Source: an uncultured delta proteobacterium (lineage in GTDB: Bacteria > Desulfobacterota > Desulfobacteria > Desulfobacterales > JAFDCJ01). Taken from it: a stretch of 64,000 bases of DNA. The notes under the pieces were generated by a model. That model was not told the DNA's origin and made no database searches. It saw only the letters and a program-made list of their open reading frames with translations. The DNA lies in assembly GCA_963769935.1 (NCBI GenBank), contig CAVYNY010000013.1, positions 480,001 to 544,000 on the forward strand, in the 5' to 3' direction. The position numbers and the translations under genes are program-made. Shown in pieces: positions 2,569 through 22,560 of the stretch; the stretch's first letter is position 1; each line of letters opens with the position of its first letter.

Positions 2569-2674
2569 AATAGGCCTCCTTTCAATGATTAATAAGTAAA
2601 TACATATTCGACCGTAATTAGCTTCAACATTCGGTTTTAAACGTTCGATGTTCAATGTTCAGTTGGTTCGAATT

Positions 2675-3768: not shown

Positions 3769-3798
3769 TTGACAAATGCCATTCAGTGTTATTAATAA
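3769..3798 (+). promoter_or_regulatory. Putative sigma70 promoter of regulator/operon 1
   Basis: TTGACA at 3769-3774 and AT-rich -10-like TATTAATAA at 3790-3798. Confidence 0.5.
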
Positions 3799-3848
3799 AT
3801 TTCATTCTTAATAAAATTCTAATAAAATAAACTTCTGGATTTGAAAAA

Positions 3849-4424
3849 GTGCTGATTGACGGCAAAAGCTTCGGTGAAAAAGTAAGAGCGCTTCGCATGC
3901 AGCGCGGGCTGACCCTGACCCATCTGGCCGAAAAAACCAGCCGCTCGGTCAGTCTGCTCAGCCAGATCGAAACCGGCAATGTCAGTCCCTCTTTCAGCAG
4001 CATGCAAACCATCGCCGACGCTTTGGAAGTGTCCCTGGCGCAGATCATTTCAGCGGAAAATGCGGCCGAAGGCGGAGATTTCTACCACATCGGTGAATCT
4101 GAACGCAAAGTTCTGATCACCCAGGGGGGGGTTCAGCACCAGCTTTTATCGCGCGGCCTGCCCCTTTCGTTTGAATTCAGCTTTATTGAAGTACCCCCGG
4201 GCGCATCCACCGGTGATCCCCTGTACTCTCACGAGGGTGAAGAATGCGGCGTTCTGCTTGAAGGTGAATTGGTGCTGGAAATCGGCCTGCAGGTATACCA
4301 TTTGAAGCCGGGGGATTCGATTACCATGAAATCCTCCCTGCCGCACAAGCTGTCCAATCCCGGTAATCAAAAAGCCCGGGCTTTATGGGTTAATTCGGTA
4401 CCCTATATTTTTTCGACAAGATGA
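3849..4424 (+). CDS. XRE-family HTH plus cupin transcriptional regulator
   Basis: LSQIETGNVSPS HTH; HEGEECGVLLEG...PH cupin sensor. Confidence 0.92.
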   Translation: MLIDGKSFGEKVRALRMQRGLTLTHLAEKTSRSVSLLSQIETGNVSPSFSSMQTIADALEVSLAQIISAENAAEGGDFYHIGESERKVLITQGGVQHQLLSRGLPLSFEFSFIEVPPGASTGDPLYSHEGEECGVLLEGELVLEIGLQVYHLKPGDSITMKSSLPHKLSNPGNQKARALWVNSVPYIFSTR

Positions 4425-4506
4425 TGGGGTAAGAACAAGTGATTATTGGTAATAGTGTCAAAAATCGGTATGATAGCAAACGTCCGTCGGATTTCAAAAG
4501 GGGGTA

Positions 4507-5580
4507 GTGCGCGTGATTCCAAAATCAATGAAGGCCTGCATGCTGACAGGCGTCAACCAGTTCGCCATTCGAGAGATACCCGTCCCAACTCCCGGTCCTT
4601 CCGAAGTTCTTTGCCGGATCAAGGCCATTGCTATTTGTGGAACCGATCCCGAGATCGTCAAAGGCAAGCACCTGAACCGCAACTGGCCCCCTGAATTTCC
4701 GTTCGTATTGGGGCATGAGTGGTCGGGGGAGATCGTCAAATTAGGCGAAGGGGTCAGCGGCTTTATGGTCGGCGACCGTGTGGCCGGGGAGGCTCACAAA
4801 GGCTGCGGCCATTGCGCGAACTGTCTGAAGGGCCAATACACCCTTTGTCTCAACTATGGGAAAGGCGAAACCGGCCATCGCCACTACGGCTTCACCAATC
4901 CCGGCGCCAACTGCGAATACAACGCCTATTCCATCAAGGCCATACGAAAGATCCCGCCCTCCTTGAGCTTTCCCCATGCCGCCCTGCTGGACACTGCCGG
5001 TGTTGCGCTGCACGGCATCAAGCTGATTGGAATCACCCCGGGAGGCACCGTGGCGGTTTTCGGTCCGGGCCCGATCGGCCTGTGTGCGATGCAGATCGCT
5101 AAAGGCTTGGGTGCCAAGAATGTTGTGATGGTCGGCCGCGCACCGAGGTTGTCCGTGGCCAAAGAAATCGGCGCCAATCACGTAATCGATTTTGAAAAGG
5201 AAGATCCGGTGGCCCGCATCATGGAAATTACCCAGGGACTGGGCGCCGACGAAGTCCTGGAATGCTCCGGCGCCGCAGTGACCCCGGGGCAAAGCATCGA
5301 TTGCGTTAAAAAAGGCGGCAAAATCGATCTGATCGGATTCTACGACGACGAGCACGCAGACATTCCGTCGATCACCAAATTGGTGGTAAACGAGATCCTG
5401 ATTACCGGTTCGAGGGCGAACCCGAATGTCTCCGACGAGGTCATCCGGCTCTTCCAGGCGGGCGTGCTGAAAGGCGACAAGGTGGTCTCCCACCGGTTTC
5501 CGCTGGAAAAATACGCCGAGGGTTTCGATACCTTTGTCAACCGCAAAGACGGGGCCATCAAGGTGGTTATCGAGCCATAG
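4507..5580 (+). CDS. Zn-dependent alcohol/polyol dehydrogenase (MDR), paralog 1
   Basis: ICGTD, GHEW, CGHCANC..C structural Zn, GPGPIG. Confidence 0.92.
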   Translation: MRVIPKSMKACMLTGVNQFAIREIPVPTPGPSEVLCRIKAIAICGTDPEIVKGKHLNRNWPPEFPFVLGHEWSGEIVKLGEGVSGFMVGDRVAGEAHKGCGHCANCLKGQYTLCLNYGKGETGHRHYGFTNPGANCEYNAYSIKAIRKIPPSLSFPHAALLDTAGVALHGIKLIGITPGGTVAVFGPGPIGLCAMQIAKGLGAKNVVMVGRAPRLSVAKEIGANHVIDFEKEDPVARIMEITQGLGADEVLECSGAAVTPGQSIDCVKKGGKIDLIGFYDDEHADIPSITKLVVNEILITGSRANPNVSDEVIRLFQAGVLKGDKVVSHRFPLEKYAEGFDTFVNRKDGAIKVVIEP

Positions 5581-5700
5581 GTGACGGCTTAAAAAAAAGC
5601 CGCTATCGGCGCTGCGCGTTTCCGCCCGGGGCGGATCCGGGGCTGGCTACGATTGAAATGCCGCCCAGGCGCTATTTCAATCTTCTGATAGGAGAGGGGC

Positions 5701-7188
5701 ATGCTTGAATTCAAGGGCATTTCCAAAAACTTCAAAGGCGTCAAGGCCCTCAATAAAGTCTCCTTCTCCATACCCGACGGGGTTATCCACGGGATCGTCG
5801 GCGAAAACGGCGCGGGCAAGAGCACGCTGATGAAAATTTTATCCGGTGTCTACCCGCCGGACAGCGGCCGCATCGAGCTGGACGGCTCCGCCATGGTGTT
5901 CGATACCCCTGAAAAGGCCTACGATGCCGGGGTGAGAATCGTGCATCAGGAACTCAGCCTGATCCGGTCCTTAACCATTGCCCAGAACATGTTTATCCAC
6001 CGGTTTCGGCGGGCTAAGCTCAAATTTATAGATCAGAAGCTCATTGAAGCCGAAGCGGCGGAAATGCTGCGCGAATGGCAAATCGACATCCCGCCGTCAA
6101 CCCTGGTTTCCGAATTGTCCATGGGGACCCGGCAGCTGGTTGAAATCGCCCGCGAGCTGTCGACCGGCGGCCGGATCATCATCCTCGACGAACCCACCTC
6201 GTCGCTGACCTTTAAGGAGATAGACCTGTTGTTCAGCGTGCTGCGCCTGCTGCGCGGCAAGGGATATATCATCATTTTTATTTCCCACCGCCTGAATGAA
6301 GTGATCGACCTGGTCGATCGGATCACCGTCCTGAGAGACGGAGAGGTGGTGGCAACGGCCGAGACCAGGGAATTGGACACGGCTCAGATCATCAACCTGA
6401 TCGCCGGCAGGGACCTGCGCGAGTTGTTTCCCAAAACGTCGGCACCGATCGGCAGTGTGGCGATCGAGGTCAGGAATTTGAGCGGAAAGGGCTTCAAGGA
6501 CATCAGCTTCAAGGTGCACTGGGGAGAAGTTCTGGGCATCGCCGGTCTGGTCGGCTCCGGGCGCAGTGAACTGGTCCGGACCATCTACGGCGTCAACGAG
6601 TGCCGCGGGGGCGAAATCCGTCTTGAAGACACGCCGGTCCGCATCAGATCGCCCAAAGAGGCCATCCAGATGGGAATCAGCCTGCTCAGTGAAGACCGGG
6701 AAGCCGAGGGGATGTTTCCGGATCTGAGCGTCTCAAAGAACCTGATCATACTAAAGATAAGGGAAGTACTGAAGAATTATTTCCTCAGCAAAAGCAAGAT
6801 CGAAGCCAAGGCCGCCCGCCTCGTCCACGAACTCAACATTGTGACCTACGATCAGGAGAAGCAGATCGTATCGGAGCTCTCCGGCGGCAACAAACAGAAG
6901 GTGATTTTGGGAAGACTGACAGGCTCGAAACCCAAAATCCTGCTTCTCGACGAACCGACCCGGGGGGTGGACATCGCCAACAAAACGGAAATTCACAAGA
7001 TCATGGGCCGGTTTTTGAATCAGGGGGGCGCCGTCGTGATGGTGTCCTCGGAGTTGAACGAATTGATCGGCGTCAGCGACAGGATCCTGGTTCTGAATGA
7101 AGGGGAATTCGGAGCCATCTATGAGCGCAACGAATTTGAGAAAGAGGAAATACTGCGATGTATGATGAAAGTGTGCCTGGCCGCCTAG
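5701..7188 (+). CDS. Sugar ABC transporter ATP-binding protein (RbsA-like)
   Basis: GENGAGKS, two DEPT motifs, LSGGNKQK. Confidence 0.95.
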   Translation: MLEFKGISKNFKGVKALNKVSFSIPDGVIHGIVGENGAGKSTLMKILSGVYPPDSGRIELDGSAMVFDTPEKAYDAGVRIVHQELSLIRSLTIAQNMFIHRFRRAKLKFIDQKLIEAEAAEMLREWQIDIPPSTLVSELSMGTRQLVEIARELSTGGRIIILDEPTSSLTFKEIDLLFSVLRLLRGKGYIIIFISHRLNEVIDLVDRITVLRDGEVVATAETRELDTAQIINLIAGRDLRELFPKTSAPIGSVAIEVRNLSGKGFKDISFKVHWGEVLGIAGLVGSGRSELVRTIYGVNECRGGEIRLEDTPVRIRSPKEAIQMGISLLSEDREAEGMFPDLSVSKNLIILKIREVLKNYFLSKSKIEAKAARLVHELNIVTYDQEKQIVSELSGGNKQKVILGRLTGSKPKILLLDEPTRGVDIANKTEIHKIMGRFLNQGGAVVMVSSELNELIGVSDRILVLNEGEFGAIYERNEFEKEEILRCMMKVCLAA

Positions 7189-8147
7189 CATCCAAAAACA
7201 TATTGGGAGTATCGCTCAATTTCAACAACGTGCAGCGCCTGTTCCTGCTCTCGGCCCTCGTGGTGGTGATCATCAGCATGACGCTGCTGAATCCCCGATT
7301 CCTGTCGTGGGGGAACATCATCAACATCAACCGCCAGATGTCGATCAACCTGATCATAGCCGTGGCAATGACCTACTGCATCATCTCCGGCGGGTTTGAT
7401 CTGTCGGTCGGATCGGTCGGGGCAATGGCCGGCTGTCTGACGGGCATCATCCTGGCATCGACCGGCAACATCCCGCTCGCCATCGCCGCTGGGCTTGCTT
7501 CCGGCGGGATCGTGGGGATCGCCAACGGGTTCGTCATCGCCAAACTGAAGGTCCCGCCCTTTGTGGCTACCTTGGGGACCATGTCGGTGGCGCGCGGCGT
7601 GGCCCTGCTGGTCACCGGCGGGATCATTATCAGCGGCTTCCCGGACAGTTTCAACTTCATCGGAACCGGATTTATATTCGGCATTCCGGTGCCGGTCATC
7701 ATCATGGTAATCGTTGTGGCCATCGGGCATATCGTCCTGTCCAAGACGGAATTCGGGCTGAACGTCTATGCTCTCGGCGGCAATTTCAAGGCATCCCGCC
7801 TGGCTGGGCTTGAAAACGACAAGATGATCATGAAGATTTACACCCTGAGCGGGCTGCTGTCCGCCATGGCCGGAATCATTCTCACGGCGCGCGTCATCTC
7901 AGCCCAGCCCGGGTTGATGGAAACGACGAACCTGGACGTGATTGCGGCCGTCGTCGTAGGCGGTTCATCGCTGGCCGGGGGCAAGGGGTCCATCGGCAAC
8001 ACGATCCTGGGCTCGGTTTTGATGGCGGCCCTGTTCAACGGCTTGAACATCATCGGTATCGGTTACGAATGGCAGCTGGTCGTAATCGGAATCATCGTCA
8101 TCATGGCGGTGGCCCTTGATATGATCTCCAGAAAAAACGAAATTTAA
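7158..8147 (+). CDS. Sugar ABC transporter permease (RbsC-like); start uncertain
   Basis: GGFDLSVG, PPFVATLG, IAAVVVGGSSLAGG. Confidence 0.93.
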   Translation: MYDESVPGRLASKNILGVSLNFNNVQRLFLLSALVVVIISMTLLNPRFLSWGNIININRQMSINLIIAVAMTYCIISGGFDLSVGSVGAMAGCLTGIILASTGNIPLAIAAGLASGGIVGIANGFVIAKLKVPPFVATLGTMSVARGVALLVTGGIIISGFPDSFNFIGTGFIFGIPVPVIIMVIVVAIGHIVLSKTEFGLNVYALGGNFKASRLAGLENDKMIMKIYTLSGLLSAMAGIILTARVISAQPGLMETTNLDVIAAVVVGGSSLAGGKGSIGNTILGSVLMAALFNGLNIIGIGYEWQLVVIGIIVIMAVALDMISRKNEI

Positions 8148-8277
8148 CCGGTAACAATCTTGGATCCCGATGGATGGTCATCGAGACCAGCGAAAGGATA
8201 TAGTGGCGTGCAGCGGATCGTGGACCCGTTGCCTAATCATATCCAAATAACCCAATCCAATCTTGAAGGAGGAAAAA

Positions 8278-9273
8278 ATGCGTAGATTAAATCTGATGGT
8301 ACTGATCGGCTTGATTGCATTCGCAGTTATCGTATCCATGTCGGCCATGCCGGCTCAGGCCCAGAAAAAAAATGTCGTCATCGGTTCCAGTATGGTTCAA
8401 AAAGACAGCGACTGGTGGGCGGTGATGGGCAAGTTCGTGGAGCAGGCGGCTGAAGCGGAGGGTTTCGAGGTCATCACCCTGTGGGCCGGAGGTGACCAGG
8501 AGAAGCAGATCAAGGATATGGAGGATCTGATCCAGCGCAAGGTCAATGCGATTGTTATGGGCCCGGTGCAGCAGGACGGCAGCATGGTCGCCATTAATGA
8601 GGCCGCCAAAGCCGGGATCCCCGTTATCACGGTGGGCCGCCGGTCGAAGACGGACAAACAGTATGCCGAGGTGTGGGCAAATGAGCCCCAGTTCGGGGTC
8701 GAGCAGGTGACCCAGATCGCCAAGGATTTCCCCAAAGGAGGCAACATAGTCTATTTGTTCGGCCCGGTGGGCGCCGGTTATGCCATCCAGATGTGGGACC
8801 AGGGCGTCGTTCCGACCATGAAGAAACATCCGAACCTTAAAATTCTCCAGAAGTACAGCTCCCCGAGCGACATCGCCTCGGACGGCATGAAGAACGCCGA
8901 AGACGCTATTGTCCGGTACGACAACATCGACATCATCGCCTGCAGCAACGACGGGTTGGCGCTGGGTGCGGTGCGGGCCGTTCAGGCCGCCGGCAAGGCG
9001 GGCAAGATCACCGTCTATGGCGCCGGGGCCACGGAAATGGGTATGCAGGCCATCGCTGACGGCGAGATGCGCTACACGACGATCAAGAGCCAGGCGAAAA
9101 TGGCGCAGATAGCCATGCAAAAAGTGGTGATGGCCATAAACGGCAAGCCGGTCGGCGAAAAGATCAACCTGGTGGCACCGATTGTCGTCACCAAGGAAAA
9201 TGTCCTCACCGTCAGGGACGCGATGTTCGGTGGCACAGTAACCGACCCGGGAACTTTCAAACCCAAAAAGTAG
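8278..9273 (+). CDS. Sugar ABC substrate-binding protein (RbsB fold)
   Basis: Signal peptide ending AQA, AGIPVITV, ND..ALGA; RBS AAGGAGG. Confidence 0.9.
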   Translation: MRRLNLMVLIGLIAFAVIVSMSAMPAQAQKKNVVIGSSMVQKDSDWWAVMGKFVEQAAEAEGFEVITLWAGGDQEKQIKDMEDLIQRKVNAIVMGPVQQDGSMVAINEAAKAGIPVITVGRRSKTDKQYAEVWANEPQFGVEQVTQIAKDFPKGGNIVYLFGPVGAGYAIQMWDQGVVPTMKKHPNLKILQKYSSPSDIASDGMKNAEDAIVRYDNIDIIACSNDGLALGAVRAVQAAGKAGKITVYGAGATEMGMQAIADGEMRYTTIKSQAKMAQIAMQKVVMAINGKPVGEKINLVAPIVVTKENVLTVRDAMFGGTVTDPGTFKPKK

Positions 9274-9549
9274 CAAGCGCTAAAAGGCAGCCGCCGTGAA
9301 ACGGAGCCCGGCAAAGTCCCGTTTCACGGGGAACGCGGAAATAAACGGCAGGCCTTCCTAAATGCCGGGGGCCAGGCCTGCCGGATTTATACATCGTCAT
9401 TGTTCCAGCCGTCGGCGATAGGCGCTGAATGCGGACGCCGTCACGCCGATCGGCCATGCGAAACCACATAAAAGCAATCGCGTGCACCGACGCGCTGTTT
9501 GGATTGTGCGGCAGCAATGCGGTTGCGCTATTTTCGGAGGATGCAAACC

Positions 9550-9945
9550 ATGGGAAAGTCACCTGCAACCAATGCGGACATGCGAAGCACGGTATTCGAT
9601 TATGAATGGAAGGAAGTCGGCGAGGAACGCGGCGGACCCATCCCGGGCATCAAAGAAAAACTGCTGGCGGTCGATCCTGAAACCGGGGCGTATACACGAA
9701 TCGTGATATTCGAACCCGGCTTCAAGTTCAAGAAGGCCTTGCAGCATCCTTTCTGGGAGGAGCTGTTCATGCTGGAAGGCCACCTGATTGATTACGGCAC
9801 CAACACGGTTTACACCAAGGGTTTCTATGCCCTCAGGCCTGCGGGCGTAGTTCATGGACCTTTTGGGACGGACCTGGGATGCACGCTGCTTGAAACGGCC
9901 TGGTACAGCAAGGATTGGTATCTGGAAAAATATAGCCAACCATAA
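9550..9945 (+). CDS. Cupin domain protein (ChrR-like)
   Basis: HPFWEELFMLEG and RPAGVVHGPF; GGAGG upstream; start uncertain. Confidence 0.8.
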   Translation: MGKSPATNADMRSTVFDYEWKEVGEERGGPIPGIKEKLLAVDPETGAYTRIVIFEPGFKFKKALQHPFWEELFMLEGHLIDYGTNTVYTKGFYALRPAGVVHGPFGTDLGCTLLETAWYSKDWYLEKYSQP

Positions 9946-10032
9946 AATAGTGCTCAAAAGATCAGTTTTAGTAACCTATTAAACGTCCCTATATTGATGA
10001 AACTATGGGCTTGGTAAGGAGACATTGGAAAT

Positions 10033-10386
10033 ATGAAGGTTTATCGAAAAGGCACGGGGGAAAAATACACGCCGTTCAACCATTTTGATATGACAACCCA
10101 GGTCATATTCAATCCGGATACCGGCTGCCCCAAGGTGAACGCCACCCTCACGACACTGAAAAAAGGTTCCGGCAGTAATGATGAAATCCACGAGACCTCG
10201 GATCAGCTTTTGTTTATGATTCAGGGCGCTATGAATGTCTATGCTCACGGCAACCTGCTTGAAACACTGAACACTGGCGATGCCTTGCTGATAAACGCCG
10301 GAGACACCCACGCTGTGAAAAATGAGAAGGACACGGATGCCGTCTTTCTTGCGATAACGGTGCCCCCGCTCGATAAAACGCACTGA
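10033..10386 (+). CDS. Cupin domain protein
   Basis: EIHETSDQ and AGDTHAVKN; RBS AAGGAG. Confidence 0.85.
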   Translation: MKVYRKGTGEKYTPFNHFDMTTQVIFNPDTGCPKVNATLTTLKKGSGSNDEIHETSDQLLFMIQGAMNVYAHGNLLETLNTGDALLINAGDTHAVKNEKDTDAVFLAITVPPLDKTH

Positions 10387-10447
10387 CATTCCGATCAACC
10401 CGGGAATCCGGGTGAACCAGCAGTACCCCGCGGAGGAGGAAAACGTG

Positions 10448-11536
10448 ATGAGTGAACAGCTGCCAGAAACTATGAACGCGTTGGTCTTAAACGCTCCGGG
10501 AAAGTTTGACATTCAGACGGTGCCGGTGCCCGCACCGGGCCCCTTTGAAGTGCTCTGCCGAATTCGCGCCGTGGCGATCTGCGGCACCGATCCCGAGGTG
10601 ATTGCAGGCGGGTTCCCCGGCTATTGGCCGCCGGCCTACCCCTTTATTCCCGGACATGAATGGGCGGGCGAGATCGTGGCGATCGGCGAGCATGCGCTGG
10701 GATTCCAGGTCGGCGACCGGGTGGCCGGCGAGGCCTGGAAGGGATGCGGCCATTGTTACCGCTGCATCGCGGGGCATTACAACCTATGCGAGAACTACGG
10801 ACGCCCGGATTCCGGGATGCGGCATTATGGTTTCCAAGCCAGCGGCGCCTATGCCCAGTACAATGTCTACTCCATCAAGAGCATTCACCAAATGCAGCCC
10901 CAGGTGTCGTTTCAGGAAGGCGCCCTGGTGGACACCGCGGGGGTCGGGATGCACGGCGTCGAATTGGCCGGAGTCACCCCCGGCGGCGTGGTCGCGGTGA
11001 TCGGTCCCGGTCCGATAGGGATCCTCACCATGCGCACGGCGCGGATCATGGGGGCGAGCAAGGTCATCATGGTCGGCCGGCGCTCCCGCCTGGAAGCCGC
11101 CGGGAGGCTGGGTGCCGACTGCCTGGTGGATTTCGAGAAAGAGGAGCCCGTTGCGGCCGTGCGGGCAGCCGCAGGCGGCCGCCCGGTCGACGAGGTCTTC
11201 GAGTGCTCGGGAGCCGAGGGCACCTTCCGGCAGGCGGTCATGATGGTCAGGGAAGGCGGACGGGTAGCTCTTTTGGGGGTCCCGCCGGCTACGGCCATGG
11301 AGCCGCTGCCCTTCAGGCACATCTGCCGCAACGAAATAGCCATCTTCGGCGTCAAAGCCAATCCGAACGTCAGTGCGAAAACACTGGCATTGATCGCTTC
11401 GGGTCAGCTGGCCGTGAAGGACTTGATCACCCATGTGTTCCCTCTGCAGGAGTTCGGGAATGCGCTGGATACATTCGTCAATCGGCGCGAGGGAGCGGTC
11501 AAGGTCGTTATCGAACCCAATGGACCTGAATCCTGA
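10448..11536 (+). CDS. Zn-dependent alcohol/polyol dehydrogenase (MDR), paralog 2
   Basis: ICGTD, GHEW, CGHCYRC..C, GPGPIG; RBS GGAGGAGG. Confidence 0.92.
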   Translation: MSEQLPETMNALVLNAPGKFDIQTVPVPAPGPFEVLCRIRAVAICGTDPEVIAGGFPGYWPPAYPFIPGHEWAGEIVAIGEHALGFQVGDRVAGEAWKGCGHCYRCIAGHYNLCENYGRPDSGMRHYGFQASGAYAQYNVYSIKSIHQMQPQVSFQEGALVDTAGVGMHGVELAGVTPGGVVAVIGPGPIGILTMRTARIMGASKVIMVGRRSRLEAAGRLGADCLVDFEKEEPVAAVRAAAGGRPVDEVFECSGAEGTFRQAVMMVREGGRVALLGVPPATAMEPLPFRHICRNEIAIFGVKANPNVSAKTLALIASGQLAVKDLITHVFPLQEFGNALDTFVNRREGAVKVVIEPNGPES

Positions 11537-11712
11537 CCCAACCTGCAGCGACGACCCAGCGTGCCTGCGACTGCTTCCAACCCGGGACGCTGATCCGGAC
11601 ATTTCACGGGTGGAGGTGGCGGCAGCCGCAAGGCGTCGGATTATGATGCTTTACCTAAGGTAGGTTGAATGAATTTTATTTTTATGACATGGGCGGGCTA
11701 AGGAGAGCCACG

Positions 11713-12468
11713 ATGATCAACTACACCATTCGGCAGATCCAGACCGGCTGGCAATTTCTGGACAAGGGATTGTACGGCACCTACGGAAAGGGGTATGGCG
11801 AAATCATCGAACACCCCGTGTTCTGCTTCCTGATCGAAGGGGGGGGGCGCAAAATACTCGTTGACACGGGCATGAGCGACACGGAACACTCCAAAAAATA
11901 CCATCACGAAGGCAGGCAGGACCCCGGCCAGGCGATCCACGAGCAGCTTGCCCGGCTCGGGGTCGGCGTCGATGAAATCGAGATCATCATCTTCACGCAT
12001 CTGCACTGGGATCACTGTTACAATGTAAAGAAGTTCCCCCGGGCGCGGCTTTTTGCGAGCGAGATCGAATATCGCTTTGCACTGGACCCCATCCCGTTCT
12101 ATTGGAATTCATACGAAGCGCCGGCCCTCGGAATCGGATGCCCCTTTGACGGTTGCCATTTCAACCTCATCCAGGGGGAGGAGGAAATCGTCGAAGGAAT
12201 CCGCGCCTACCCTACCCCCGGACACAGTCCCGGTCACATGGCCGTATCCGTGCAGACTTTAAATGGGGTGTACTCGCTCATCGGAGACTTGATCCTGCTG
12301 CGGGAGTCGTTGCAGCCCAACACGGAGAAGGGATGGCCTCTGACGCCGCCGGGCCGGTTCTACAACATCGTCGAAGTCTGGCACAGCATGGAGGAGGTCA
12401 TCCGGCGTTCCGATCATATCCTCATGACGCATGATCCCGGGCAACTGAAGCAGGAAATATACCCATGA
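11713..12468 (+). CDS. MBL-fold hydrolase, N-acyl-homoserine lactonase family
   Basis: VDTG, THLHWDH, TPGHSPGH, GD, HD; RBS AGGAG. Confidence 0.88.
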   Translation: MINYTIRQIQTGWQFLDKGLYGTYGKGYGEIIEHPVFCFLIEGGGRKILVDTGMSDTEHSKKYHHEGRQDPGQAIHEQLARLGVGVDEIEIIIFTHLHWDHCYNVKKFPRARLFASEIEYRFALDPIPFYWNSYEAPALGIGCPFDGCHFNLIQGEEEIVEGIRAYPTPGHSPGHMAVSVQTLNGVYSLIGDLILLRESLQPNTEKGWPLTPPGRFYNIVEVWHSMEEVIRRSDHILMTHDPGQLKQEIYP

Positions 12469-13103
12469 CAGCAACAGGTCGCCGGGGGCAAGGCTCCCGG
12501 CAGAACACAGCGACCCGACGCGTCAAAGACGAGCTGGTGCGATCCGCCCGGCGCGCTTACGAAATCGGCCTTCAGACAGGAGACGGCGGCAACTTGAGCG
12601 GCCGGGTGGCCGGTACGGATCTGGTTGTCATCAAAGCGAGCGGGGTTTCCTTCGGCGAATGCAGGCCGGACAACCTGGTGACCGTCAACCTCCAGGGCGA
12701 AATCGTCCACGGCGAAGCGAAGCCTTCGCGGGAGCTTTTCACTCATCTGGCGGTCTACACGGCGCGGCCGGAGATCCTGGGAATTTGCCACTGTCACGGC
12801 CCCTGGTCCATTGCCTGTGCCGAATTCCATTCCCAGATCCGCTGCATCAGCCTGCATGCCGGATCCAAAATCGGACCGATCCCGGTTCTGAAAGTCGCAG
12901 GACAAGGCGACCTGAAGGTCAAGAAGGCCGTTGAAGCCCTGCTGGCAAAATATCCGGGCTTGAAGGCATTCGTGCAGGCCCGGCACGGGATTTTCGCCAT
13001 GGCGGAATCCGTTACCCGGGCGGAGCACCATGCGGAATTGGTCGAGGAAACGGCGCAGATCGCCTGGCTGGTGGCCATGCGCAAGCTGCCGCGGGTTTCC
13101 TGA
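12465..13103 (+). CDS. Class II aldolase/adducin family protein (AraD/FucA/MtnB/OtnC-like)
   Basis: GGNLS, PSRE..H, HCH, RHG; ATGA overlap with upstream gene. Confidence 0.9.
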   Translation: MTATGRRGQGSRQNTATRRVKDELVRSARRAYEIGLQTGDGGNLSGRVAGTDLVVIKASGVSFGECRPDNLVTVNLQGEIVHGEAKPSRELFTHLAVYTARPEILGICHCHGPWSIACAEFHSQIRCISLHAGSKIGPIPVLKVAGQGDLKVKKAVEALLAKYPGLKAFVQARHGIFAMAESVTRAEHHAELVEETAQIAWLVAMRKLPRVS

Positions 13104-13117
13104 GGAGCTTTTTTTCG

Positions 13118-14398
13118 ATGCCGAAACAAATCGTATTGCTCGGAACGCTAGACACCAAGGGACCGGAGATCCAATTCGCCAAACAGCTGGTTGAACGCCG
13201 GGGGCACGTCGCGGTCGTAATCGATTGCGGCATTATGGGAGAGCCGTATTTCGCTGCGGCGGTCTCGAGACAGGAAGTCGCCGGCGCCGCCGGGACCACC
13301 CTCACGGAAATCATCGCCCGGGGCGACAAGAATGCCGCTATCCGGACGATGACGGCCGGATCAACAGCCATTGTCAAGCGGCTTCACGCAGCCGGCCGGA
13401 TGGATGGAATTCTCGCCCTGGGCGGCGGTCAGGGTACCGTGATGGGAACCGCGGTAATGCAGGCCCTGCCCTTCGGAGTGCCCAAGGTCATGCTGTCGGC
13501 CGTCGCCAACGGCCAGACCGCGTTCGGTCCTTTCGTCGGAACCCGGGACATCACGATCATCCACTCGGTAGCCGACGTCCTGGGGCTGAACATCATCACC
13601 CGGCGAGTCCTGGCTGAAGCGGTGGGCGCCATAACCGGTATGGTTGAGATAGATTTCGATGAACCCGGTTCGGGCCGCCCCGCCATCGCCATGACGACTG
13701 CGGGCGTCACGACGCTCTGTGCCATGCGCGCCCGGGATGTCCTGGATTCCAGGGGCTACGAAGTGATCGCCTTCCATTGCAACGGCATCGGCGCCCAGGC
13801 CATGGAAGAATTGGCCGAAGCCGGGCTGCTCGCCGGCATCCTGGACATCAGCCCGCATGACATCACGGATTATCTCTTCGGGGGCATCTTCCCGGCCTTC
13901 CGGAACCGGATGGAGGCAACCTGCCGGCTGGGGATTCCCCAGGTGGTTGTACCGGGAACCACCGATTTCATTCTGTATGCCGGGATTGACTCCGTGCCGC
14001 CCGAAATGTTGCAGCGCAAATACGTCATCCACAATCCGATCCATACCCACGTGCGCACCAACCATGAGGAAATGGCGGCGGTCGGACGCTTTATCGCCGA
14101 ACGGCTGATCCGCAGCACCGGACCGGCGGAGGTGATCATCCCCAAACGGGGTTTCACGGCGCTCAACACGGCCGGCGGTCCGATGTACGACCCGCAATCG
14201 GACAGCGGTTTTGCGGAGGGCCTTTTAGAGACCCTCGGGCAAGGCGGTGCGCATAAGGTCCGCGTGGAGGAAATCGACCGGCATATCAACGACCCCGAGT
14301 TTGCCGAAGCCCTCGCCCTAAGGATCGATACACTGGTCACGCAGGCGAACCCTTTGCATACACGGAATATACAGGAGCATCATGAACCCCGCCGATAA
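13118..14398 (+). CDS. Tm-1-like ATP-binding domain protein (UPF0261), copy 1
   Basis: GTLDTKG, GGGQGT, LPFGVPKV, FHCNGIG, HINDPEFA. Confidence 0.9.
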   Translation: MPKQIVLLGTLDTKGPEIQFAKQLVERRGHVAVVIDCGIMGEPYFAAAVSRQEVAGAAGTTLTEIIARGDKNAAIRTMTAGSTAIVKRLHAAGRMDGILALGGGQGTVMGTAVMQALPFGVPKVMLSAVANGQTAFGPFVGTRDITIIHSVADVLGLNIITRRVLAEAVGAITGMVEIDFDEPGSGRPAIAMTTAGVTTLCAMRARDVLDSRGYEVIAFHCNGIGAQAMEELAEAGLLAGILDISPHDITDYLFGGIFPAFRNRMEATCRLGIPQVVVPGTTDFILYAGIDSVPPEMLQRKYVIHNPIHTHVRTNHEEMAAVGRFIAERLIRSTGPAEVIIPKRGFTALNTAGGPMYDPQSDSGFAEGLLETLGQGGAHKVRVEEIDRHINDPEFAEALALRIDTLVTQANPLHTRNIQEHHEPRR

Positions 14399-15676
14399 AT
14401 CGGGCTTTTTTGCGGATCGCGCGCGCCTGGACATGGCGCGCTATCTGGTTTTCGACTATCGCTTCGAAACGGCGATTGCGCCCGAGGAAGCCGCCGCGCA
14501 CCTGTGCCAGGAACAATCCACCGCGCAATGGAAGCGGGTCGGGGTGCAGGAGGACCTGCGGGAGCGTTTCGGTGCCAAAGTCATCGATCTGCAGATTGAG
14601 CGCCGGCAGGAGGCCCCCTCATTTCCTTCGGCCGCGCTCGCAGAAGGAGCGGTTGATGTCTGCCGGGTCAAAATCGCCCATCCGCACGGAAATTTCGGCC
14701 CCAAACTGCCGAACATTCTGACGGCCGCCTGCGGCGAGGGCGCTTTTTTTTCGCCGGGGATTTCGGCCATCAAGCTGCTGGACATCGAGTTCCCCGACGC
14801 GTTTCTGGAGAATTTCCAGGGGCCTCAATTCGGGGTCGAGGGTCTGCGCCGCATGCTGCAGGTCTATGATCGACCGCTTTTTTTCGGCGTGATCAAGCCC
14901 AACATCGGCCTGCCGCCGGAGCCGTTTGCCGAGCTCGCCTATCAGGCCTGGCTGGGGGGGTTGGATATCGCCAAAGACGATGAAATGCTGTGCGATGTCG
15001 ACTGGTCGCCGTTACGCAAGAGGGCCCGATTGTTGGGCGCGGCGCGCTTGAAAAGTGAGAAAGAAACCGGAGAAAAGAAAATATACCTGGCGAATATCAC
15101 CGATGAAGTCGACCGGCTGATTGAATTGCACGACATTGCCGTGGCGGCCGGAGCCAATGCCGTGATGGTCAACGGCATGACAACCGGGTTAAGTGCGGTG
15201 CGCATGTTGCGCAAGCATGCCCGGGTACCGCTGGTGGGACATTTCGACTTTATCGCGCCGTTCACTCAAATTCCTTTTTACGGCGTGCATTCAAAATTGG
15301 TCACCAAGCTGCAGCGGCTGGTGGGTTTTGATGCCATTATCATGCCGGGTTTCGGAAACAGGATGAAAACCCCGCAGGATGAAGTATTGGAAAATGTGCA
15401 GGAATGCTTCAAACCCATGGGCCATATCAAAGACACCCTGCCGGTTCCGGCCGGCAGCCAATGGGCCGGCTCCACGGTAAAATTATATCAGCAGCCTGGG
15501 TACGATTGATTTCGGGATTGTGCCGGGCAGGGGTGTTTTCGGCCATCCCATGGGACCCCGAAGGCGGCGCCGCCAGTCTGAGACAGGGTTGGGAATCGGT
15601 TCAAAAGAGTATGACCCTTGAAGAATACGCCAAGGATCATCCGGAGTTAAAGGCGGCGATTGAGGCGTTTTCGTGA
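14382..15676 (+). CDS. RuBisCO-like protein, form IV (Chlorobium-type IV-Photo); two apparent +1 frameshifts near 15496 and 15559
   Basis: [37 protein letters not shown]; removing two extra C's restores [28 protein letters not shown]...HPEL to stop at 15676. Confidence 0.9.
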
Positions 15677-15736
15677 TGGTCCGTTGCCGGCAAATTTTAT
15701 TACTACCATGAATACCCAACAACCGGCCACTGACAT

Positions 15737-16968
15737 TTACTTTGCTTCACCCATCACCTCCAACAATTGCTCAAAGGCGACAGTGGCAAATTCGTCATCG
15801 TTGATGTGAGCTTCTACCTCGATGATGGGGATGTCCCGCCGCAGGTTTTTTTTCAATTCCTTCAAAAACACCGGATTACCATCAGGATTCCACAAAGCCA
15901 GACCTTTCTTGTCCTGAGAGCAGAATCCCTGCGCCGGATAACAGGAATTTAACCTTGCCTTTCGCCTTGTTTAATTTTTCAGCAAAAGTTGCAGCGATGA
16001 TTTTCAATTCTTCCACGGTTGTATTTATAAGGGTAATATTCGGATTGTGGTAGTATTTTTGGCGATCATCATATTTTGACTGCAAAGCGTCTTCGCTGCT
16101 CAATACGATGATGTTGGCCGCTCCGGGTGTCACCACGGTCGGGACGCCCATTTCCAGTGCGGCTTCCATTCTGCCGGGCTTGGCGACATGCAGGCCCCCA
16201 AAATTATTGGCAACCAATTCGTTGGTTGAAAAGTCCAGCACACCGGCAAAATATTTTTCAGGGACCAAGGTGTCCATGCAATCACCGCCGGTGCCGTTGG
16301 CATGGAAGGTCAAAACTTCATAGCCGCGTTTTTCGAGCTCAGGTTTTATAACGCTCATGATGGGCTTGGTGGTTGTGCCCAGCATGCTGATGGCGATACT
16401 TTTAGGTTTTTTATCGGATGCCTCCGGTTTTACTTTAACCATTCCCACAATGGCACCCACCGCATTGTTGAAAACTCTTCTGCTGATCGAATTTATACCC
16501 AGGATATCGATAACGGAATGCATGACGGTGGCATCATTGTATCCGATGAGATCACTAAACAGGTGTTTGCCGGAAGCAATCGTGGAAACGGCGATCTTGG
16601 GTACGCCCAGCGGTAAGGCATCCATGGCCGCACGCGCTAATACGGACCCTTCCGCACCGCCGATGGCAATCAGACCCTGGATAGTTCCTTCTTCATAAAG
16701 CTTCTTCACATAAGTCTGTAGGCAATCCCGCATTCTTTCTATTGCGGCCCCCCTGGAGCCGGCATTCGACAAGCTCCTGGATGGTTTTACCTGAATACTC
16801 GACAACCTGGTCGCGGGTAACCTCAGGCTCCAGAAAGACCGGTTTGCCAAGGATGCCCGAATCAACCACCAGAGCGTTGACATGGCAGGATTCTATGCGC
16901 TGCTTCAAGTAGAGTGCTTCTTCTCCTTTGGTATCGCAGGTTGCGATGATTGCAATTGTGTCAGACAT
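15737..16968 (-). CDS. Tm-1-like ATP-binding domain protein (UPF0261), copy 2; frameshifts near 16770 and 15945
   Basis: ATCDTKG, GGAEGS, LPLGVPK, FHANGTGG, HINDDEFA spread over three frames. Confidence 0.85.
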
Positions 16969-17103
16969 AGCATGAATCCTCAATGTCCAATCAGATACTC
17001 AATTCCGGACGAACTATTTCGAAATAGGGATACGAACCGTTATTCAAATGCGCTAAAATGCCTAAAATTAAATTGACTAAAATAATTCGATGCGCTTAAA
17101 GCG

Positions 17104-17756
17104 CTAACTCTCGTATTCTTCCAGTTCGGCCAGAAGGTCGTTGAAAAATTCTCGGCGGATCTGATTCCGCCCCTCCGGGCCGCGAATTCTTTGCCGGTCT
17201 TGGTATAAAACGTCAAATTTTTGAAACCGGCCCGCCACTTGACGATGGCATACAGATTTTTATAATCCTGATGGCCCGCCAAACCGCGCTGTCCGAACTC
17301 CACATAAGTCCTCACAACCTGAAGGATACCGATTTTCCCTATCTTTTCCAGCAAATCGGCATCATGGACGACCTTGGCTTCCAGACTGGGCGGCTCGACT
17401 TCAAAACCGGGCATGGCTCCCTTATGGCTCAGGATGCAGTCGGCAATCTTTTTCCTTTCGGCCGCACTCCAATCACCCAGACGGTCCACGCACTTCTCGG
17501 CGCCGATGCGGTGATGGACCGCCGGATCCGGATTATACAAAAAGCCGATATCATGCAGCAGAATCGCCGGCAGTACGATCTGCATGTCGGCCCCCTCGGC
17601 TTCGCCGATCCGGACGGCATTGATCGTGTCCCGGTAGATATGGTCCCAGTTATGAGCGACGAAATCACGGCTCTCAAAGGCGGTTTTGACGCTGTCGTGG
17701 ATCATCTTTATCCGCTTGTCTGCAAGGTATCCCTCAAGTTGCGTGCGTGCCGACAT
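17104..17756 (-). CDS. HD domain protein; frameshift near 17160
   Basis: AHNWDH, LLHDIG, HDADLLE. Confidence 0.8.
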
Positions 17757-17773
17757 TTCAAACATCTCCGGAC

Positions 17774-18891
17774 TTAAAGACCTGCCGCCTCTGCAACCAG
17801 ATCCACCAGATTGACTACCTTGATATTATTTATACTCCGGGCAGTCATTGTTTTTTTGAAGGTTTCATCACAGCGCGGACAACCCGAAACCAAAAGGGCA
17901 GCTCCGGTCTCTCTGGCTTCATCGATTCTCAACGCGGCGATTGCTTCTGACACATCTGATCGATGAACCGCCAACATCCCCCTGCCCCGCAACAATTGGC
18001 CCATTGTTTATGAGTCGCCATCTCTTTGAACTCATCATCCAGGATTTTTGAAAGAATAAACCGGGGCGAATCCACATCCTCAAAAAATCTCGCCAGGACG
18101 CAGGGATCGTGATAGGTGGCACCATCAGTAACCTTGCTGATCACAGGTATCTGATTATTCTTCAACCAGTCTGCCATCAGAGCATTGATATGCAGGATCT
18201 TTATTCCCTTAATGTCACCGCCGAATCGTAGATGTTCTTCCCATCAGCATCCTGTAGCTGCGGCCATCCAGAGCGACAACCGTCGAAACTTGGCTGTCTC
18301 TGATCTTTTCTGCAACCAGGCTGATAATTGTTTGGCGCCTTCAAAGTCTCCCAGTTGATATAGCGCCCAACCACTGGCGGGTTCATCCGCAAGTACTTTA
18401 AATGATTTACCGGCCTGATTGAAGAGTTTGCCGGCGGCGATCAGCGTTGGTATTTGAGAATCCCTTGCCGCTCTGCCGCAAAACAGCAGTGTGTCGGCAT
18501 CGGAATCGAGCGCAATCCGGCATGCGGTCAATATCCTTTGCGGATTTTCCCCCTGTACCGGATTCTGGCGCAGACCTTTGGTGTAGGCGATGACTTCATC
18601 CGGTGCCAGGCCCTTTTCAAAGAGACGGGCTCTGGTATCAATCACGAGTTCTTCGTGATCGTAATTACCCACACACCATTGCTGCAGCATGCGGTCATTG
18701 AGGGTGGTATACATGATATCCGCCACATCCTCATCATATCCAAGCAGTCCGTTATCTAAGGCAGATATGATGGCCCCCCGGCCGCGTGGCGTATAGGATT
18801 CTCTGCGTACGACCTGGCCTACCCGGTCGGCACAATGACACATCATGCAAAAACGGCAGGCCCAGATGGTTTCCGTCTCTTTCCTTTTCAC
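17774..18891 (-). CDS. (Fe-S)-binding CCG-domain oxidoreductase subunit (GlcF/GlpC/HdrD-like); several frameshifts
   Basis: CRFCMMC, YHDPC, CCGAGG, SGCPRC in successive frames. Confidence 0.8.
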
Positions 18892-19068
18892 TCAAAAACA
18901 TCGCTGTTACCTTTTAAATTAAACGTTCTAATTTACGAATCTACCCGATTGGGATCATTTGTCCAAATTCATTGGAATATGCTTCGAAATCGATATTCGA
19001 AATTCGAATTTTGCCTTGCTCAGCCTTCAGCAGGATTCGGCCTCCCCAAATATGGATAAGATCATCGG

Positions 19069-20514
19069 TTACTTTCGCCTTATAAAACCCAGTTTGCCCG
19101 GATTCATAATTCCGGCCGGATCCAGTGCATCTTTAATTCTTTGCATCGTCGGCCAGGCCGGCCCATACTGTTCTTCCATCAACCAGCCCAGTTTAAAACC
19201 GATCCCATGATGATCGTTCAATACGCCGCCATGTTCAAGGGAAGCACGCGCCGCTTTGCCCCAGATCTCGGTATGCAGCTGCAAGGCTTCATGCGGATCC
19301 TGGGGTGGCTTGGCGATCAGGAAACGATCATAAACCATCACGCCCCACGGAAACCAGTGCGAGAAGTGTGCCATGTAGTCCGTACCCCACTCCTTGAATT
19401 CTTCGGTGATGACCCGTTGCTTGGCTTTGAATATATTGTAGATCTTATCGTAAGTTGCGGTGGTTTCCACAGTCCCGAACATTTCCGGCAGCATCAGACT
19501 GTGGGGTGGGAAATAGAAATCATAGCGATGCTTCCACCAGTGTTCACCGGGTTCCGGCCCCAATTGTTTCCCGTTCAGCTTCGGTACAGATCTCATGGAT
19601 GAGCTGAATTTCAAGATCCACAAACCGCCGGTCACCATCCGATCCTAGCACCATGAAGGCGCCTTTCATATCCAGATCAAGTACCCGTTTTACAACCCGT
19701 TCGCTGGAGCTGGAATCATAAAGCCGAATGACACAAGGATGCAGACGCTGGGTCATGATCCGCCGCCCGGCCTCAAGGCCCTGCCGGACATCTTCAAAAA
19801 TATAGGAGTTAAATCTGCGAACCTCGGGTATTGGATCCAGACGCATGGTAACTTCGGTAATGGTCCCCAGGGTGCCCTCCGAACCGACGAACAACTGCAA
19901 CAGTCCCGGACCGCAGGCATGGTTGGGTACCGGCAGGGTTCGGATTATTTCGCCGGACGCCAGCACAACCTCCATGCTCACGACCATGTCTTCGGCTTTG
20001 CCGTACTTTGGTCGACAAAGTCCCGGATCCCCGGGCGGCAACATACCCGCCCAGGGTCGCCCCGTATTCGGAAGCCGGATAATGGGCCAGGGTGAAACCC
20101 TTTTTGTTCAGGGCCCATTCAAGATGCTGGCCGTTGATTCCCGGTTGGGCGGTAACCGTCAGCGACGCCTCATCGATTTTGACAATCCGGTCCATCTTTT
20201 TCAGATCGAGAATGATGCCGCCGTAAAGCGGAACCACACCGCCTTGGCTGCCGGTGCCGCCGCCGTAAGGAATAACCGGGATCCCGTGCCGGGTGGCCAG
20301 TTTATGAATGCGGGCAACCTCTGCGGCCGATTCCGGGAACACGATAAAATCCGGCTTTTCCAGCGTCTGCCGCCGATCGAATCCACATCTGCGGGACCAG
20401 ATAAAAATCCATGCTGTAGGCCAGACGTTCGGCTTCACGTACGGTGACATCTTCGTATCCGACAATATCCAGCAATTCATTTTTGATGATACCTAACAAC
20501 AGATTTTCGGACAT
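19069..20514 (-). CDS. FAD-binding oxidoreductase (GlcD / alkyl-DHAP synthase-like); several frameshifts
   Basis: PYGGGTG, ATLGG, GSEGTLG, HHGIG, DPAGIMNPGK. Confidence 0.85.
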
Positions 20515-21420
20515 CCACCGACCTTTCTAAAATCGTTTGACTAATTGGTTGCTGCTGTTCAACCCTGTCTTTCCATTCGCGATTGGTGACTTCAATTTTA
20601 ACCTTTTCAAGTTCTGCGAGCGCCCGCGCCAGATGCGCTGCAAAGCGTTTTAAGGCTTCTTCGCCTTTTTCCTTTGTGCCCCGCAAAGGATTGCCAATAA
20701 GTCCGGTATCGGAGAACTCCCGGTGTTCCATCGGAAATACGAAATAATTATAGCCTTCAAATTCCACACTGGGGGTACCGTCTTTTTTCAGGAAAGATTC
20801 CGGCAAATAAGGCGGGGTGCTGGTTCTTTCACTTTTTACCGCGCGATCCATCCGGGCCAATTTTTCATCGTGCGCCAGAACCTGGGCGGTCTCCAGCTCT
20901 CCGGCATGCCACCCGGTGTTTCTTCCGGCGGACCTTCCAGGATGTCGGCGATCATGCCGAAATAGTTTTCCGCATAGGGTTTATATACGCACACCAGGGC
21001 GTTGGTATCGTACTTTGATTTTCCTCAGCAAGGGATCGATAATTTTCATGTTGGAGGCATGGCCCGGTAACAAATACAATCTTGTTGAACCCATGGTGGA
21101 TCAAGGAGCGGGCCACGTCATAGTAAAGATTTCTGAAAGTCTCGGCCCGCACGGTGATGGTGCCCAGTCCCAATCCGGGGGGGCCCATATGATGTGGGCT
21201 GTAGCCGATCCATGATTCCGGTGTATACAGCACCTCGGCCTGCACTGGCGGCCCGGTAGGTAACTTCTCTGGCGGTAATCATGTCGGTAAACAGCGGACA
21301 ATGGTAGGAATGCTGTTCCAGACTGGCAATGGGTACCATGATAATATCCTTTTTCTTGAGATAATCCTGGATATCGACATAGGTTAAATTGCCGATGTTA
21401 TATTTGTAATCTGTCTGCAT
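20477..21420 (-). CDS. Creatininase family hydrolase; several frameshifts, true stop possibly near 20559
   Basis: SLEQHSYHCP..TD, GYSPHH, GH, HAGELET, GLIGNP; RBS GGGGAG. Confidence 0.85.
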
Positions 21421-21624
21421 TTTGTCTCCCCTTCCTGGCCCCTGATTGAGTGGCGAATACAGAATCGGCCGTTTATAGTTAATTTTAAAAAAAATCAGAG
21501 AATAGGCTCGTTTAAAAACTGCAAGATCATCGGCAGGACAATTTGTACCTGAAAACAACCTTAAAGAAAATGCCTCCCGACAGTCAAGGAAAAAATCAAA
21601 TTTTCACAATATTTTTTAATAATT

Positions 21625-21651
21625 ATTATATTTTTTCAGTTTTTTAGTCAA
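21625..21651 (-). promoter_or_regulatory. Putative sigma70 promoter of operon 2
   Basis: TTGACT and TATAAT on minus strand; 15-nt homopolymer-rich spacer (short, possibly an error). Confidence 0.4.
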
Positions 21652-21779
21652 GCAAACATTTAAGAATTTAGTTGATGATAAAAAAATGCTTTACAAAGAA
21701 TGCATTATGTTTAATTATGATTAGCGCATCCTTTTTCAAATCTTCTCAATTTTTTGCACAATATTAACCTGGAACTGGC

Positions 21780-22545
21780 ATGTATCCTTTTGAGAGAAAA
21801 GAAAAAATTTTGGGTCGGCTGCGCAAAATTGGCCTGATCAACATCAACGAGGACGCCAAATTATTCAATGTGTCCATATCAACCCTCCACCGCGATCTTG
21901 AGGACCTTGAAAAACAGGGACTGGTAAAAAAAGTAATGGGCGGCGCCGTATTAGCAAACGGCAATCAATTCGCGACCCACTTTGACAAACGTCTGCAAAA
22001 TCAAGGTAAAGAAAAAAAGGCGATCGCCAGAAAAGCAGTTCAGTACATTAAAGACGATACGTCGATTTACCTGGACCATTCATCCACCGCTACCTACCTG
22101 GCGCGGGAAATTAAACAGCGCTCATTCAAAAGTCTGCTGGTTTTGACCAATTCGCTTCAGATTCCCGCTGAACTGGGCGGGGTTCAAGGAATACAGGTCA
22201 TCAGTACCGGCGGAGTGGTTGAAAGTGAGTTCAAAGCCCTGTATGGTCGATGGGTGGTTGATTCCATTCAGCGAATCAATTTGAATCAAATTTTCATCTC
22301 GGTCGGGGCTATTTCGGTGGCGAATGGGCTGATGACTCAGATGCACTTCATTAATGACTTGTTTCCGGAATTGTTCCGGCACAGCCAGAATATCAATGTG
22401 CTGGTTGACAGCAGTAAATTTTATAAATTGTGCACATTTCAGATTTCACCTCTGAAACCTTCGTTCACGATTTTTACTGATCAAAGGACTGCCTGAAGAA
22501 ATCAGAAATGAAATTGAAGCCAAAGGGCTAAAAGTCGAAATTTAG
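21780..22545 (+). CDS. DeoR/GlpR family transcriptional regulator; frameshift near 22481
   Basis: VSISTLHRDL..LE, K.AIA, TNSL, DSSKF; corrected end TDKGLPEEIRNEIEAKGLKVEI. Confidence 0.9.
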
Positions 22546-22560
22546 CATATAAACTTTGGT

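Follow-up and report, generated by a model that had tools for sequence, protein, structure and literature searches.

A RuBisCO-like protein of the IV-Photo clade in a predicted sugar catabolic operon of an uncultured delta proteobacterium

Characterized RuBisCO-like proteins (RLPs) act on phosphorylated substrates, and the MtnW, DeepYkr and OiaX groups share a Mg-bound enediolate adjoining the C1 phosphate. Solved structures and knockouts exist for another group, the Chlorobium-type or IV-Photo RLPs; to our knowledge its reaction has been without assignment since 2001. A gene of this type is present in a 64,000-nucleotide stretch of DNA (termed the window) from an uncultured delta proteobacterium of the Desulfobacterales (assembly GCA_963769935.1, contig CAVYNY010000013.1, positions 480,001–544,000). 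The encoded RLP falls in a separate IV-Photo sub-clade whose genes recur beside those for a metallo-beta-lactamase-fold (MBL) hydrolase, a UPF0261 protein, a class II aldolase and an RpiB-family isomerase, and it is tentatively read as a sugar phosphate isomerase.

The chemistry of MtnW, DeepYkr and OiaX is covered in the available text of PMC6302742 and PMC5893883. MtnW (YkrW) is a 2,3-diketo-5-methylthiopentyl-1-phosphate enolase. DeepYkr, which includes the Rhodospirillum rubrum RLP and Rhodopseudomonas palustris RLP1, is a 5-methylthioribulose-1-phosphate (MTRu-1-P) 1,3-isomerase. The OiaX/OiaT pathway for D-apionate includes LerI, a TIM-barrel protein, and DerI, an RpiB-family protein, which act in turn to convert L-erythrulose-1-phosphate to erythrose-4-phosphate (PMC10733421, available portion). 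As for the IV-Photo group, the accessible sections of PMC5893883 (2018) leave open the function of R. palustris RLP2, which has no role in methylthioadenosine (MTA) metabolism, and the reaction of the Photo RLP. No later assignment for a Photo RLP was found in the literature searched, whose coverage leaves out most subscription papers; the sequence-only reading of the window had likewise regarded the reaction of the Chlorobaculum tepidum RLP as unassigned. In the same literature no description of a module of MBL, kinase, RpiB and RLP genes was found. Photo-clade RLPs of non-phototrophs are in print for Parcubacteria and Micrarchaeota, according to the part of PMC6389311 available. The RLP described here is a member of a known clade, and its sub-clade and gene module were not found in print.

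A phmmer search of the PDB with the RLP gave R. palustris RLP2 (2QYG, 523 bits) and the C. tepidum RLP (1TEL, 512 bits; 1YKW, 510 bits), followed by a next match of 142 bits. Identity to these proteins is about 60% over the whole chain, and nearly all mapped active-site residues are the same. Scores on the NCBIfam models lie below the cut-offs: 193 bits for OiaX (NF042437, cut-off 700), 182 for form III (TIGR03326, 497), 171 for MtnW (NF007095, 409) and 140 for TIGR03332 (514). The AlphaFold model of P0002, a 97% identical homologue, has a mean local confidence (pLDDT) of 94.7; Foldseek gives TM scores of 0.93–0.98 to 1TEL, 1YKW and 2QYG, with superposition at 1.2–1.8 Å. Trees of 78, 65 and 29 rows were built from rows picked among the analyzed loci and hits. 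The 29-row tree places the RLP within the Photo clade with a support of 100/99, the clade consisting of 19 rows including the Chlorobium and R. palustris loci. Approximately unbiased (AU) tests on this tree reject placement with DeepYkr (p-AU 6e-4), OiaX (6e-58) or MtnW (about 1.4e-5), and also direct grouping with Chlorobium (6e-55). The RLP belongs to a sub-clade (SH-like approximate likelihood ratio test 98–99, bootstrap 91) beside a phototroph-rich clade, with records labelled Desulfobacterales, Desulfocapsaceae, Syntrophaceae, Anaerolineae and Spirochaetota. By sequence comparison, therefore, the RLP is classed in the IV-Photo clade. The Chlorobium-type assignment first made from the letters alone is upheld, and the form IV phylogeny proposed with it rejects the placements in YkrW/MtnW, DeepYkr or OiaX that would have spoken against it.

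An alignment with form I RuBisCO shows that E60 (E44 in the RLP), K175 (K172), the metal site K201-D-D-E204 (K198–E201) and H294 (H287) are kept. All six of the bona fide RuBisCO residues compared are replaced: N123 by E119, K177 by N174, R295 by F288, H327 by I320, K334 by R327 and G404 by R383. C-terminal positions such as R383 were taken from P0002, and R383 was also read from the shifted frame described below. The RLP carries the entire IV-Photo signature (E119, K172, N174, KDDE, H287, F288, I320, R327, R383), and the copies in phototrophs share E119, N174, F288, I320, R327 and R383. Judged by these residues the RLP is not a carboxylase and not a bona fide form I–III RuBisCO; the alignment agrees with the earlier claims that the KDDE site and Lys175 are retained, and that K177, N123, R295, H327 and K334 are substituted. 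MtnW has the same fold and metal site and a hydrophobic second phosphate site, but K123 where the RLP has E119. DeepYkr, at about 30% identity, has KDDH instead of KDDE; the RLP shares with it I327 (I or V in DeepYkr), P329, R334 and A379 (RuBisCO numbering), a set not found in OiaX. Within the IV-Photo clade the sub-clade is marked by A357 and Q360, and by D289 in most members (four members lack it, and two RLPs linked to YjbQ have it). The motifs GHFDF and PAGSQW, which according to the first reading may tune the substrate, are, on the alignments, sub-clade markers, and the QW after loop 7 (PAGSQW) is common to the sub-clade and the OiaX-type RLPs.

The RLP gene does not form one continuous open reading frame. 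The frame at 14382–15509 (+ strand, 375 codons) holds [52 protein letters not shown] and PAGSQW, a second frame holds [12 protein letters not shown], and the C-terminal helix lies in the third, up to the stop at 15676; the motifs quoted in the first reading are thus all present, spread over three frames. Alignment with three related genes places one extra base near 15493 and another near 15563. Short-read contigs from two of four runs span both breaks and lack both bases, and one contig over the first break shows 1 mismatch in 247 bases with the extra base missing. Homologues at 97% (P0002) and 95% identity are intact with 430 aa. Because of these contigs and the whole 97% homologue, the two +1 frameshifts probably arose in assembly and the gene is likely intact; that the breaks lie in an error-rich assembly stretch is held with high confidence. 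A true pseudogene at the border of a decaying region, which the first reading had named as a way to be wrong, is very unlikely. It would account for the two frameshifts and for the frame changes in five of the six downstream genes tested (1–3 in each of the five compared with homologues in locus L004, i.e. all but the DeoR gene). The short-read contigs are also only about 91–95% identical to the window past 15531, so that they come from other, close strains, and X1, the run that matches best, gave no contig that covers the breaks. There is no in-frame stop by substitution in the RLP gene, however, and no frame change in the upstream operon genes tested. The sub-clade and the gene module hold even if the window copy were a pseudogene.

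The host genome (96.7% complete, 5.4% contamination) has the RLP as its sole RuBisCO-family gene. No match to Photo_RC or PsaA/PsaB was detected in it, nor any to four photosynthesis-gene probes by tblastn, in agreement with the earlier view of a non-phototroph. Phototrophy, the source of the name IV-Photo, is not a strict property of the clade. The host dsrA scores over its cut-off. Among 301 genomes of the order, three carry an RLP of this type; all belong to one genus, and the RLPs show 71–73% identity to each other's type and have differing neighbours. Thus the RLP is an accessory gene in the order, and is probably mobile.

Related RLP loci in GTDB genomes (the best 80 of 381, many on short contigs) were sorted into three sets on the basis of the tree, motifs and record names: 38 loci of the sub-clade, 40 phototroph-rich loci and 2 that bridge the two. 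The 38 sub-clade loci carry MBL in 25 cases, RpiB in 24 (adjacent or fused), UPF0261 in 16, class II aldolase in 11, and at least one of the four in 32; RpiB is the commonest enzyme partner after MBL. None of these four genes is found in the 40 phototroph-rich loci, where the partners are YjbQ (29 of 40, vs. 0 of 38 in the sub-clade) or LsrF with an aldolase-short-chain dehydrogenase (SDR) protein (11 of 40). In one genome with an RpiB-RLP fusion the operon runs on past the first flank to UPF0261 (58%) and aldolase (55%). The module recurs in Desulfobacterales-, Anaerolineae- and Spirochaetota-labelled records with differing gene orders. A reverse search yielded 80 metagenome MBL loci. Twenty-five are at least 61% identical; in these a Photo RLP is present in 12 and absent from 2, and the other 11 stop short of the slot; none of the 55 more distant loci has one. 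Among 351 genomes in the class of G004, the RLP is found in 3 (including the centre genome) and MBL in 17, and all three RLP genomes have MBL within 4 kb.

Loci were fetched for 12 of the 14 genomes that have MBL only, and all 12 carry UPF0261. Two end early on the contig, and their genomes have a RuBisCO-family gene elsewhere. One genome, G515, gave no RuBisCO-family match. Its operon is orthologous to that of a close relative, G586 (MBL 88%, UPF0261 78%, RpiB 82%, TIM-barrel isomerase 77% identity). The Photo RLP is present in G586; in its stead G515 carries a Hyi/OtnI-like isomerase and a LerI-like TIM-barrel protein. The latter shares its NCBIfam subfamily and 50% identity with the TIM-barrel protein of a Rhizobium OiaX cluster, itself taken to be LerI by its position. 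No LerI-type protein was found in the 80 RLP loci.

From these data the RLP is tentatively read as a Mg2+-enediolate isomerase without CO2 fixation, which would shift a carbonyl from C2 to C3 on a short ketose-1-phosphate as LerI does; the chance given to this is somewhat under even. It is the best reading in view of the missing CO2-binding lysine, the hydrophobic second phosphate site, the loop residues shared with DeepYkr, the RpiB partner and the LerI-like swap. The recurrence of the neighbours in the sub-clade loci, the reverse search and the genome counts also speak for it, as does a trace isomerization of MTRu-1-P reported earlier for R. palustris RLP2 (PMC5893883). A ketose-1-phosphate carbonyl shift is also the DeepYkr reaction, and cupins are found near both. 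The predicted role of the operon is the degradation of a sugar lactone or sugar acid taken up from outside. The ABC transporter would import the compound, a dehydrogenase and the MBL lactonase would yield an oxo-sugar or oxo-acid, and the UPF0261 protein would phosphorylate it, thus supplying the phosphate that characterized RLP substrates carry. In favour of this, the family has a member with kinase activity, MarK (PMC12624787); the window UPF0261 protein matches MarK (PDB 9MPY) with an E-value of 7.5e-64 and keeps the D-T-K ATP motif and the acceptor-site Gly/His/His. The RLP may then hold the C1 phosphate and form a C2–C3 enediolate at the K198-D-D-E metal site, to be reprotonated, with K172 and H287 as candidate acid/base residues; F288 and I320, in place of the second phosphate site residues of RuBisCO, would fit a short mono-phosphorylated chain. 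An RpiB-family isomerase, encoded elsewhere in this genome, or the class II aldolase would pass the product to central metabolism. L-Erythrulose-1-phosphate is the first candidate substrate, a weak and unlikely one. The catabolic context proposed earlier is borne out by the transporter, dehydrogenase, MBL, aldolase and kinase-family genes; as a route to function it has narrowed the reaction class, and the substrate is not given by it.

Several observations weigh against this assignment. The counts come from a selection of the best loci and overstate independence, since about 11 of the 38 sub-clade loci are closely related RpiB-RLP fusions and 7 of the 12 RLP-bearing loci of the reverse search share one layout. 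UPF0261 occurs widely in the order (62 of 301 genomes). The MBL-kinase unit can do without a Photo RLP: five MBL loci at 46–48% identity have UPF0261 and aldolase and no RLP, and in 9 of the 12 fetched MBL-only loci the slot is taken by an RLP of the MtnW side, which is unrelated and differs in its active site. The window operon has no RpiB, and the nearest tree neighbours have other partners: LsrF and SDR in L001, PEP-hydrolase-like proteins and flavin mononucleotide (FMN) reductase in L002, L003, L005 and L023. The LsrF gene beside L001 may be there by chance, as the same Fe-S/LsrF/alcohol dehydrogenase/GntR block is on another contig of the genome that holds the window. The swap is a single pair, with two enzymes standing where the RLP is missing; a search of 15 genomes related to G515 and 14 related to G586, sets that mostly coincide, yielded no further one (a comparison that does not take in two distant MBL matches of G661). 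Seven RLP-linked RpiB proteins score 124–186 bits on the DerI model (NF051858, cut-off 240; the best model for two of them), vs. 256 bits for a Rhizobium control. The loop-6 alignment of the RLP has a gap. In the available text of PMC5893883, R. palustris RLP2 had no measurable MTRu-1-P activity in kinetic assays. The only assayed UPF0261 member, the kinase MarK, phosphorylates phenols (PMC12624787, part available). The window UPF0261 protein lacks the His348 of MarK, and its context is sugar catabolism, vs. acetovanillone carboxylase genes for MarK.

The main rival is a beta-keto-acid phosphate decarboxylase like OiaX or UlaD, which is rather unlikely. Here the lactonase and kinase would give a 3-oxo-aldonate phosphate, the RLP would remove CO2 via an enediolate and RpiB would isomerize the resulting ketose phosphate. 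OiaX clusters, likewise devoted to acid sugars, combine a kinase, an RLP and RpiB in the same layout; the lactonase-first logic, a LarA-like epimerase in L030, L109 and L123, a GlcD-like flavin (FAD) oxidase and a DUF1537 kinase in L034 fit this route, as does the shared QW, and R327 and R383 could bind a carboxylate. As several loci (L012, L103, L217) have no aldolase, another decarboxylase may be needed. The K334, R295 and H/Q327 of OiaX-type proteins are replaced, however; the score on the OiaX model is as low as given above, 11 of the 38 sub-clade loci have an OtnC-like class II protein adjoining the RLP, and the RLP-free G515 gained isomerases and no recognizable decarboxylase. The OiaX pathway also differs in its kinase, which is of the DUF1537 and not the UPF0261 family, and in its LerI-type protein, which Photo-RLP loci lack. 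A tautomerase like MtnW, interconverting a 2,3-diketo-1-phosphate and an enol phosphate, is less plausible still and is considered improbable. A MarK-type kinase would act on the acidic enol (reductone) as MarK does on phenol, consistent with the conserved Gly and pair of His in the acceptor site; plant Tm-1 has both of these His as well, so they are no marker of an enol substrate. The C. tepidum RLP is said to enolize 2,3-diketohexane-1-phosphate, and the MtnW-side RLPs in the same slot score 348–368 bits on the MtnW model (cut-off 409), vs. 171 for the Photo RLP, whose placement with MtnW is rejected; RpiB would have no obvious role after such a step.

It is also distinctly improbable that the RLP acts in sulfur or S-adenosylmethionine (SAM) by-product metabolism (e.g. 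5-deoxyribulose-1-phosphate to 1-deoxyxylulose-5-phosphate) or in stress, as suggested for phototrophs, with the sugar genes as passengers. The host dsrA and the yjbQ-RLP pairs of L006 and L008 are in its favour, and the available part of PMC5893883 links the C. tepidum RLP to sulfur oxidation and stress. The same source gives RLP2 no part in MTA metabolism, YjbQ is absent from all 38 sub-clade loci, only 3 genomes in the order have the RLP, and the module recurs in three differently labelled groups in different gene orders. An extension of the isomerase reading, considered quite unlikely, makes the Photo RLP a RuBisCO-fold L-erythrulose-1-phosphate isomerase and the module a hitherto undescribed pathway by which products of vitamin C breakdown are used anaerobically. 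A dehydroascorbate-type lactone would go to 2,3-diketogulonate and L-erythrulose, to be phosphorylated by the MarK-family kinase and converted to erythrose-4-phosphate by the RLP and RpiB. The link comes from an L-ascorbate (ula) cluster that adjoins the module in one lineage and from the formation of L-erythrulose from diketogulonate (PMC5398285, available portion). The cluster (UlaG, UlaD, UlaE, UlaF, FGGY kinase, over or near the cut-offs) is found in four related Desulfocapsaceae-like loci only, and thus counts as one observation.

Coordinates of the features in the window are given in Table 1. On one strand the gene order is XRE-cupin, Zn-dehydrogenase, ABC transporter, two cupins, Zn-dehydrogenase, MBL, aldolase, UPF0261 and RLP, the RLP start codon lying 17 bases within the UPF0261 gene. 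The transporter set is 60–65% identical to that of L123/L109. A promoter and terminator scan of 3500–16200 was at chance (9 vs. 6.9; 14 vs. 15.3), which is neutral on a single transcript.

Table 1. Features of the RLP operon and its convergent neighbour (window positions)
Feature	Position	Strand	Remarks
XRE-cupin transcriptional regulator	3849..4424	+	also adjoins module in L103, L219
Zn-dependent alcohol/polyol dehydrogenase 1	4507..5580	+	
CUT2 (monosaccharide-type) ATP-binding cassette (ABC) transporter	5701..9273	+	ATPase 5701-7188, permease 7158-8147, binding protein 8263-9273
ChrR-like cupin	9499..9945	+	conserved next to MBL in related loci
Cupin_2 protein	10033..10386	+	conserved next to MBL in related loci
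Zn-dependent alcohol/polyol dehydrogenase 2	10412..11536	+	51% identical to copy 1
MBL hydrolase, acyl-homoserine lactone (AHL) lactonase / 4-pyridoxolactonase type	11713..12468	+	
Class II aldolase/adducin-family, FucA/OtnC/AraD-like	12465..13103	+	under every NCBIfam cut-off
UPF0261 (Tm-1-like), MarK kinase family	13118..14398	+	both UPF0261 domains, D-T-K ATP motif
IV-Photo RLP	14382..15676	+	430 aa in whole homologues; motifs, PDB phmmer, tree
Second UPF0261, convergent	15737..16983	-	about 36% identical to first; split by two frameshifts

Downstream, a convergent block (15737–24010, - strand) encodes the second UPF0261, an HD-domain protein, a CCG Fe-S protein, a GlcD-like FAD oxidase, a creatininase-family protein, a DeoR regulator and a radical SAM protein; most of its genes are frameshifted. 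The block may belong to the same pathway as the RLP, as its homologues adjoin the RLP in L004 and, in L030 and L109, a FAD oxidase gene comes after that for the RLP. Elsewhere in the host genome (G000), contig C16 (385137–391220, L198) has two LsrF-like genes with Fe-S/CCG proteins, and the genome's sole RpiB is on contig C20 (380761–381207, L199), where it is accompanied by DhaK/DhaL-like genes, a pair of TIM-barrel isomerases and a tripartite transporter.

Other loci show further arrangements. A third set of partners is seen in L002, L003, L005, L023 and L095: the RLP, with HLPF for HFDF, is immediately preceded by one to three genes for PEP-hydrolase-like TIM-barrel proteins together with an FMN reductase gene. 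The order in L006 (7035–11299) and L008 is xseA-xseB-ispA, then yjbQ and a Photo RLP that branches between the two sub-clades; dxs is the usual occupant of this slot. In L108 (4237–10116) MBL, UPF0261 and RpiB lie opposite an aldolase-SDR fusion and an LsrF-like gene, which are Chlorobium-type partners, and no RLP was found in the remaining 0.7 kb of the contig. An apparent UPF0261-RLP fusion in L030 was ruled out as an N gap. The ula clusters of L024, L035, L036 and L052 (about 1900–6900) are fed by an ABC transporter, with no phosphotransferase system in the 18 kb upstream. MtnW-side RLP operons (L204, L206, L208–L212, L214; N123, C177, Y/S295) read GntR-MBL-UPF0261-UroD-like-(class I aldolase)-UPF0261-UroD-like-RLP. 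A plasmid search with MBL gave no match; one with the aldolase gave seven records, of which the Thermus plasmids (L201, 6912–12617) pair UPF0261 and class II aldolase with a creatininase-family gene and a tripartite transporter, without an RLP. For the kinase-aldolase pair, these plasmids thus point to a host that is in culture and tractable.

The ties of the non-phototroph sub-clade to a lactonase, a kinase and RpiB, together with the LerI-/Hyi-like swap, give a short list of substrates for the Photo RLP. If the isomerase reading is true, there would be a sugar substrate for the UPF0261 kinase family and an added reaction in the RuBisCO superfamily. If the vitamin C route were also true, the same C2/C3 shift would account for the Chlorobium copies linked to LsrF as well as for those in the dxs slot that are linked to YjbQ.

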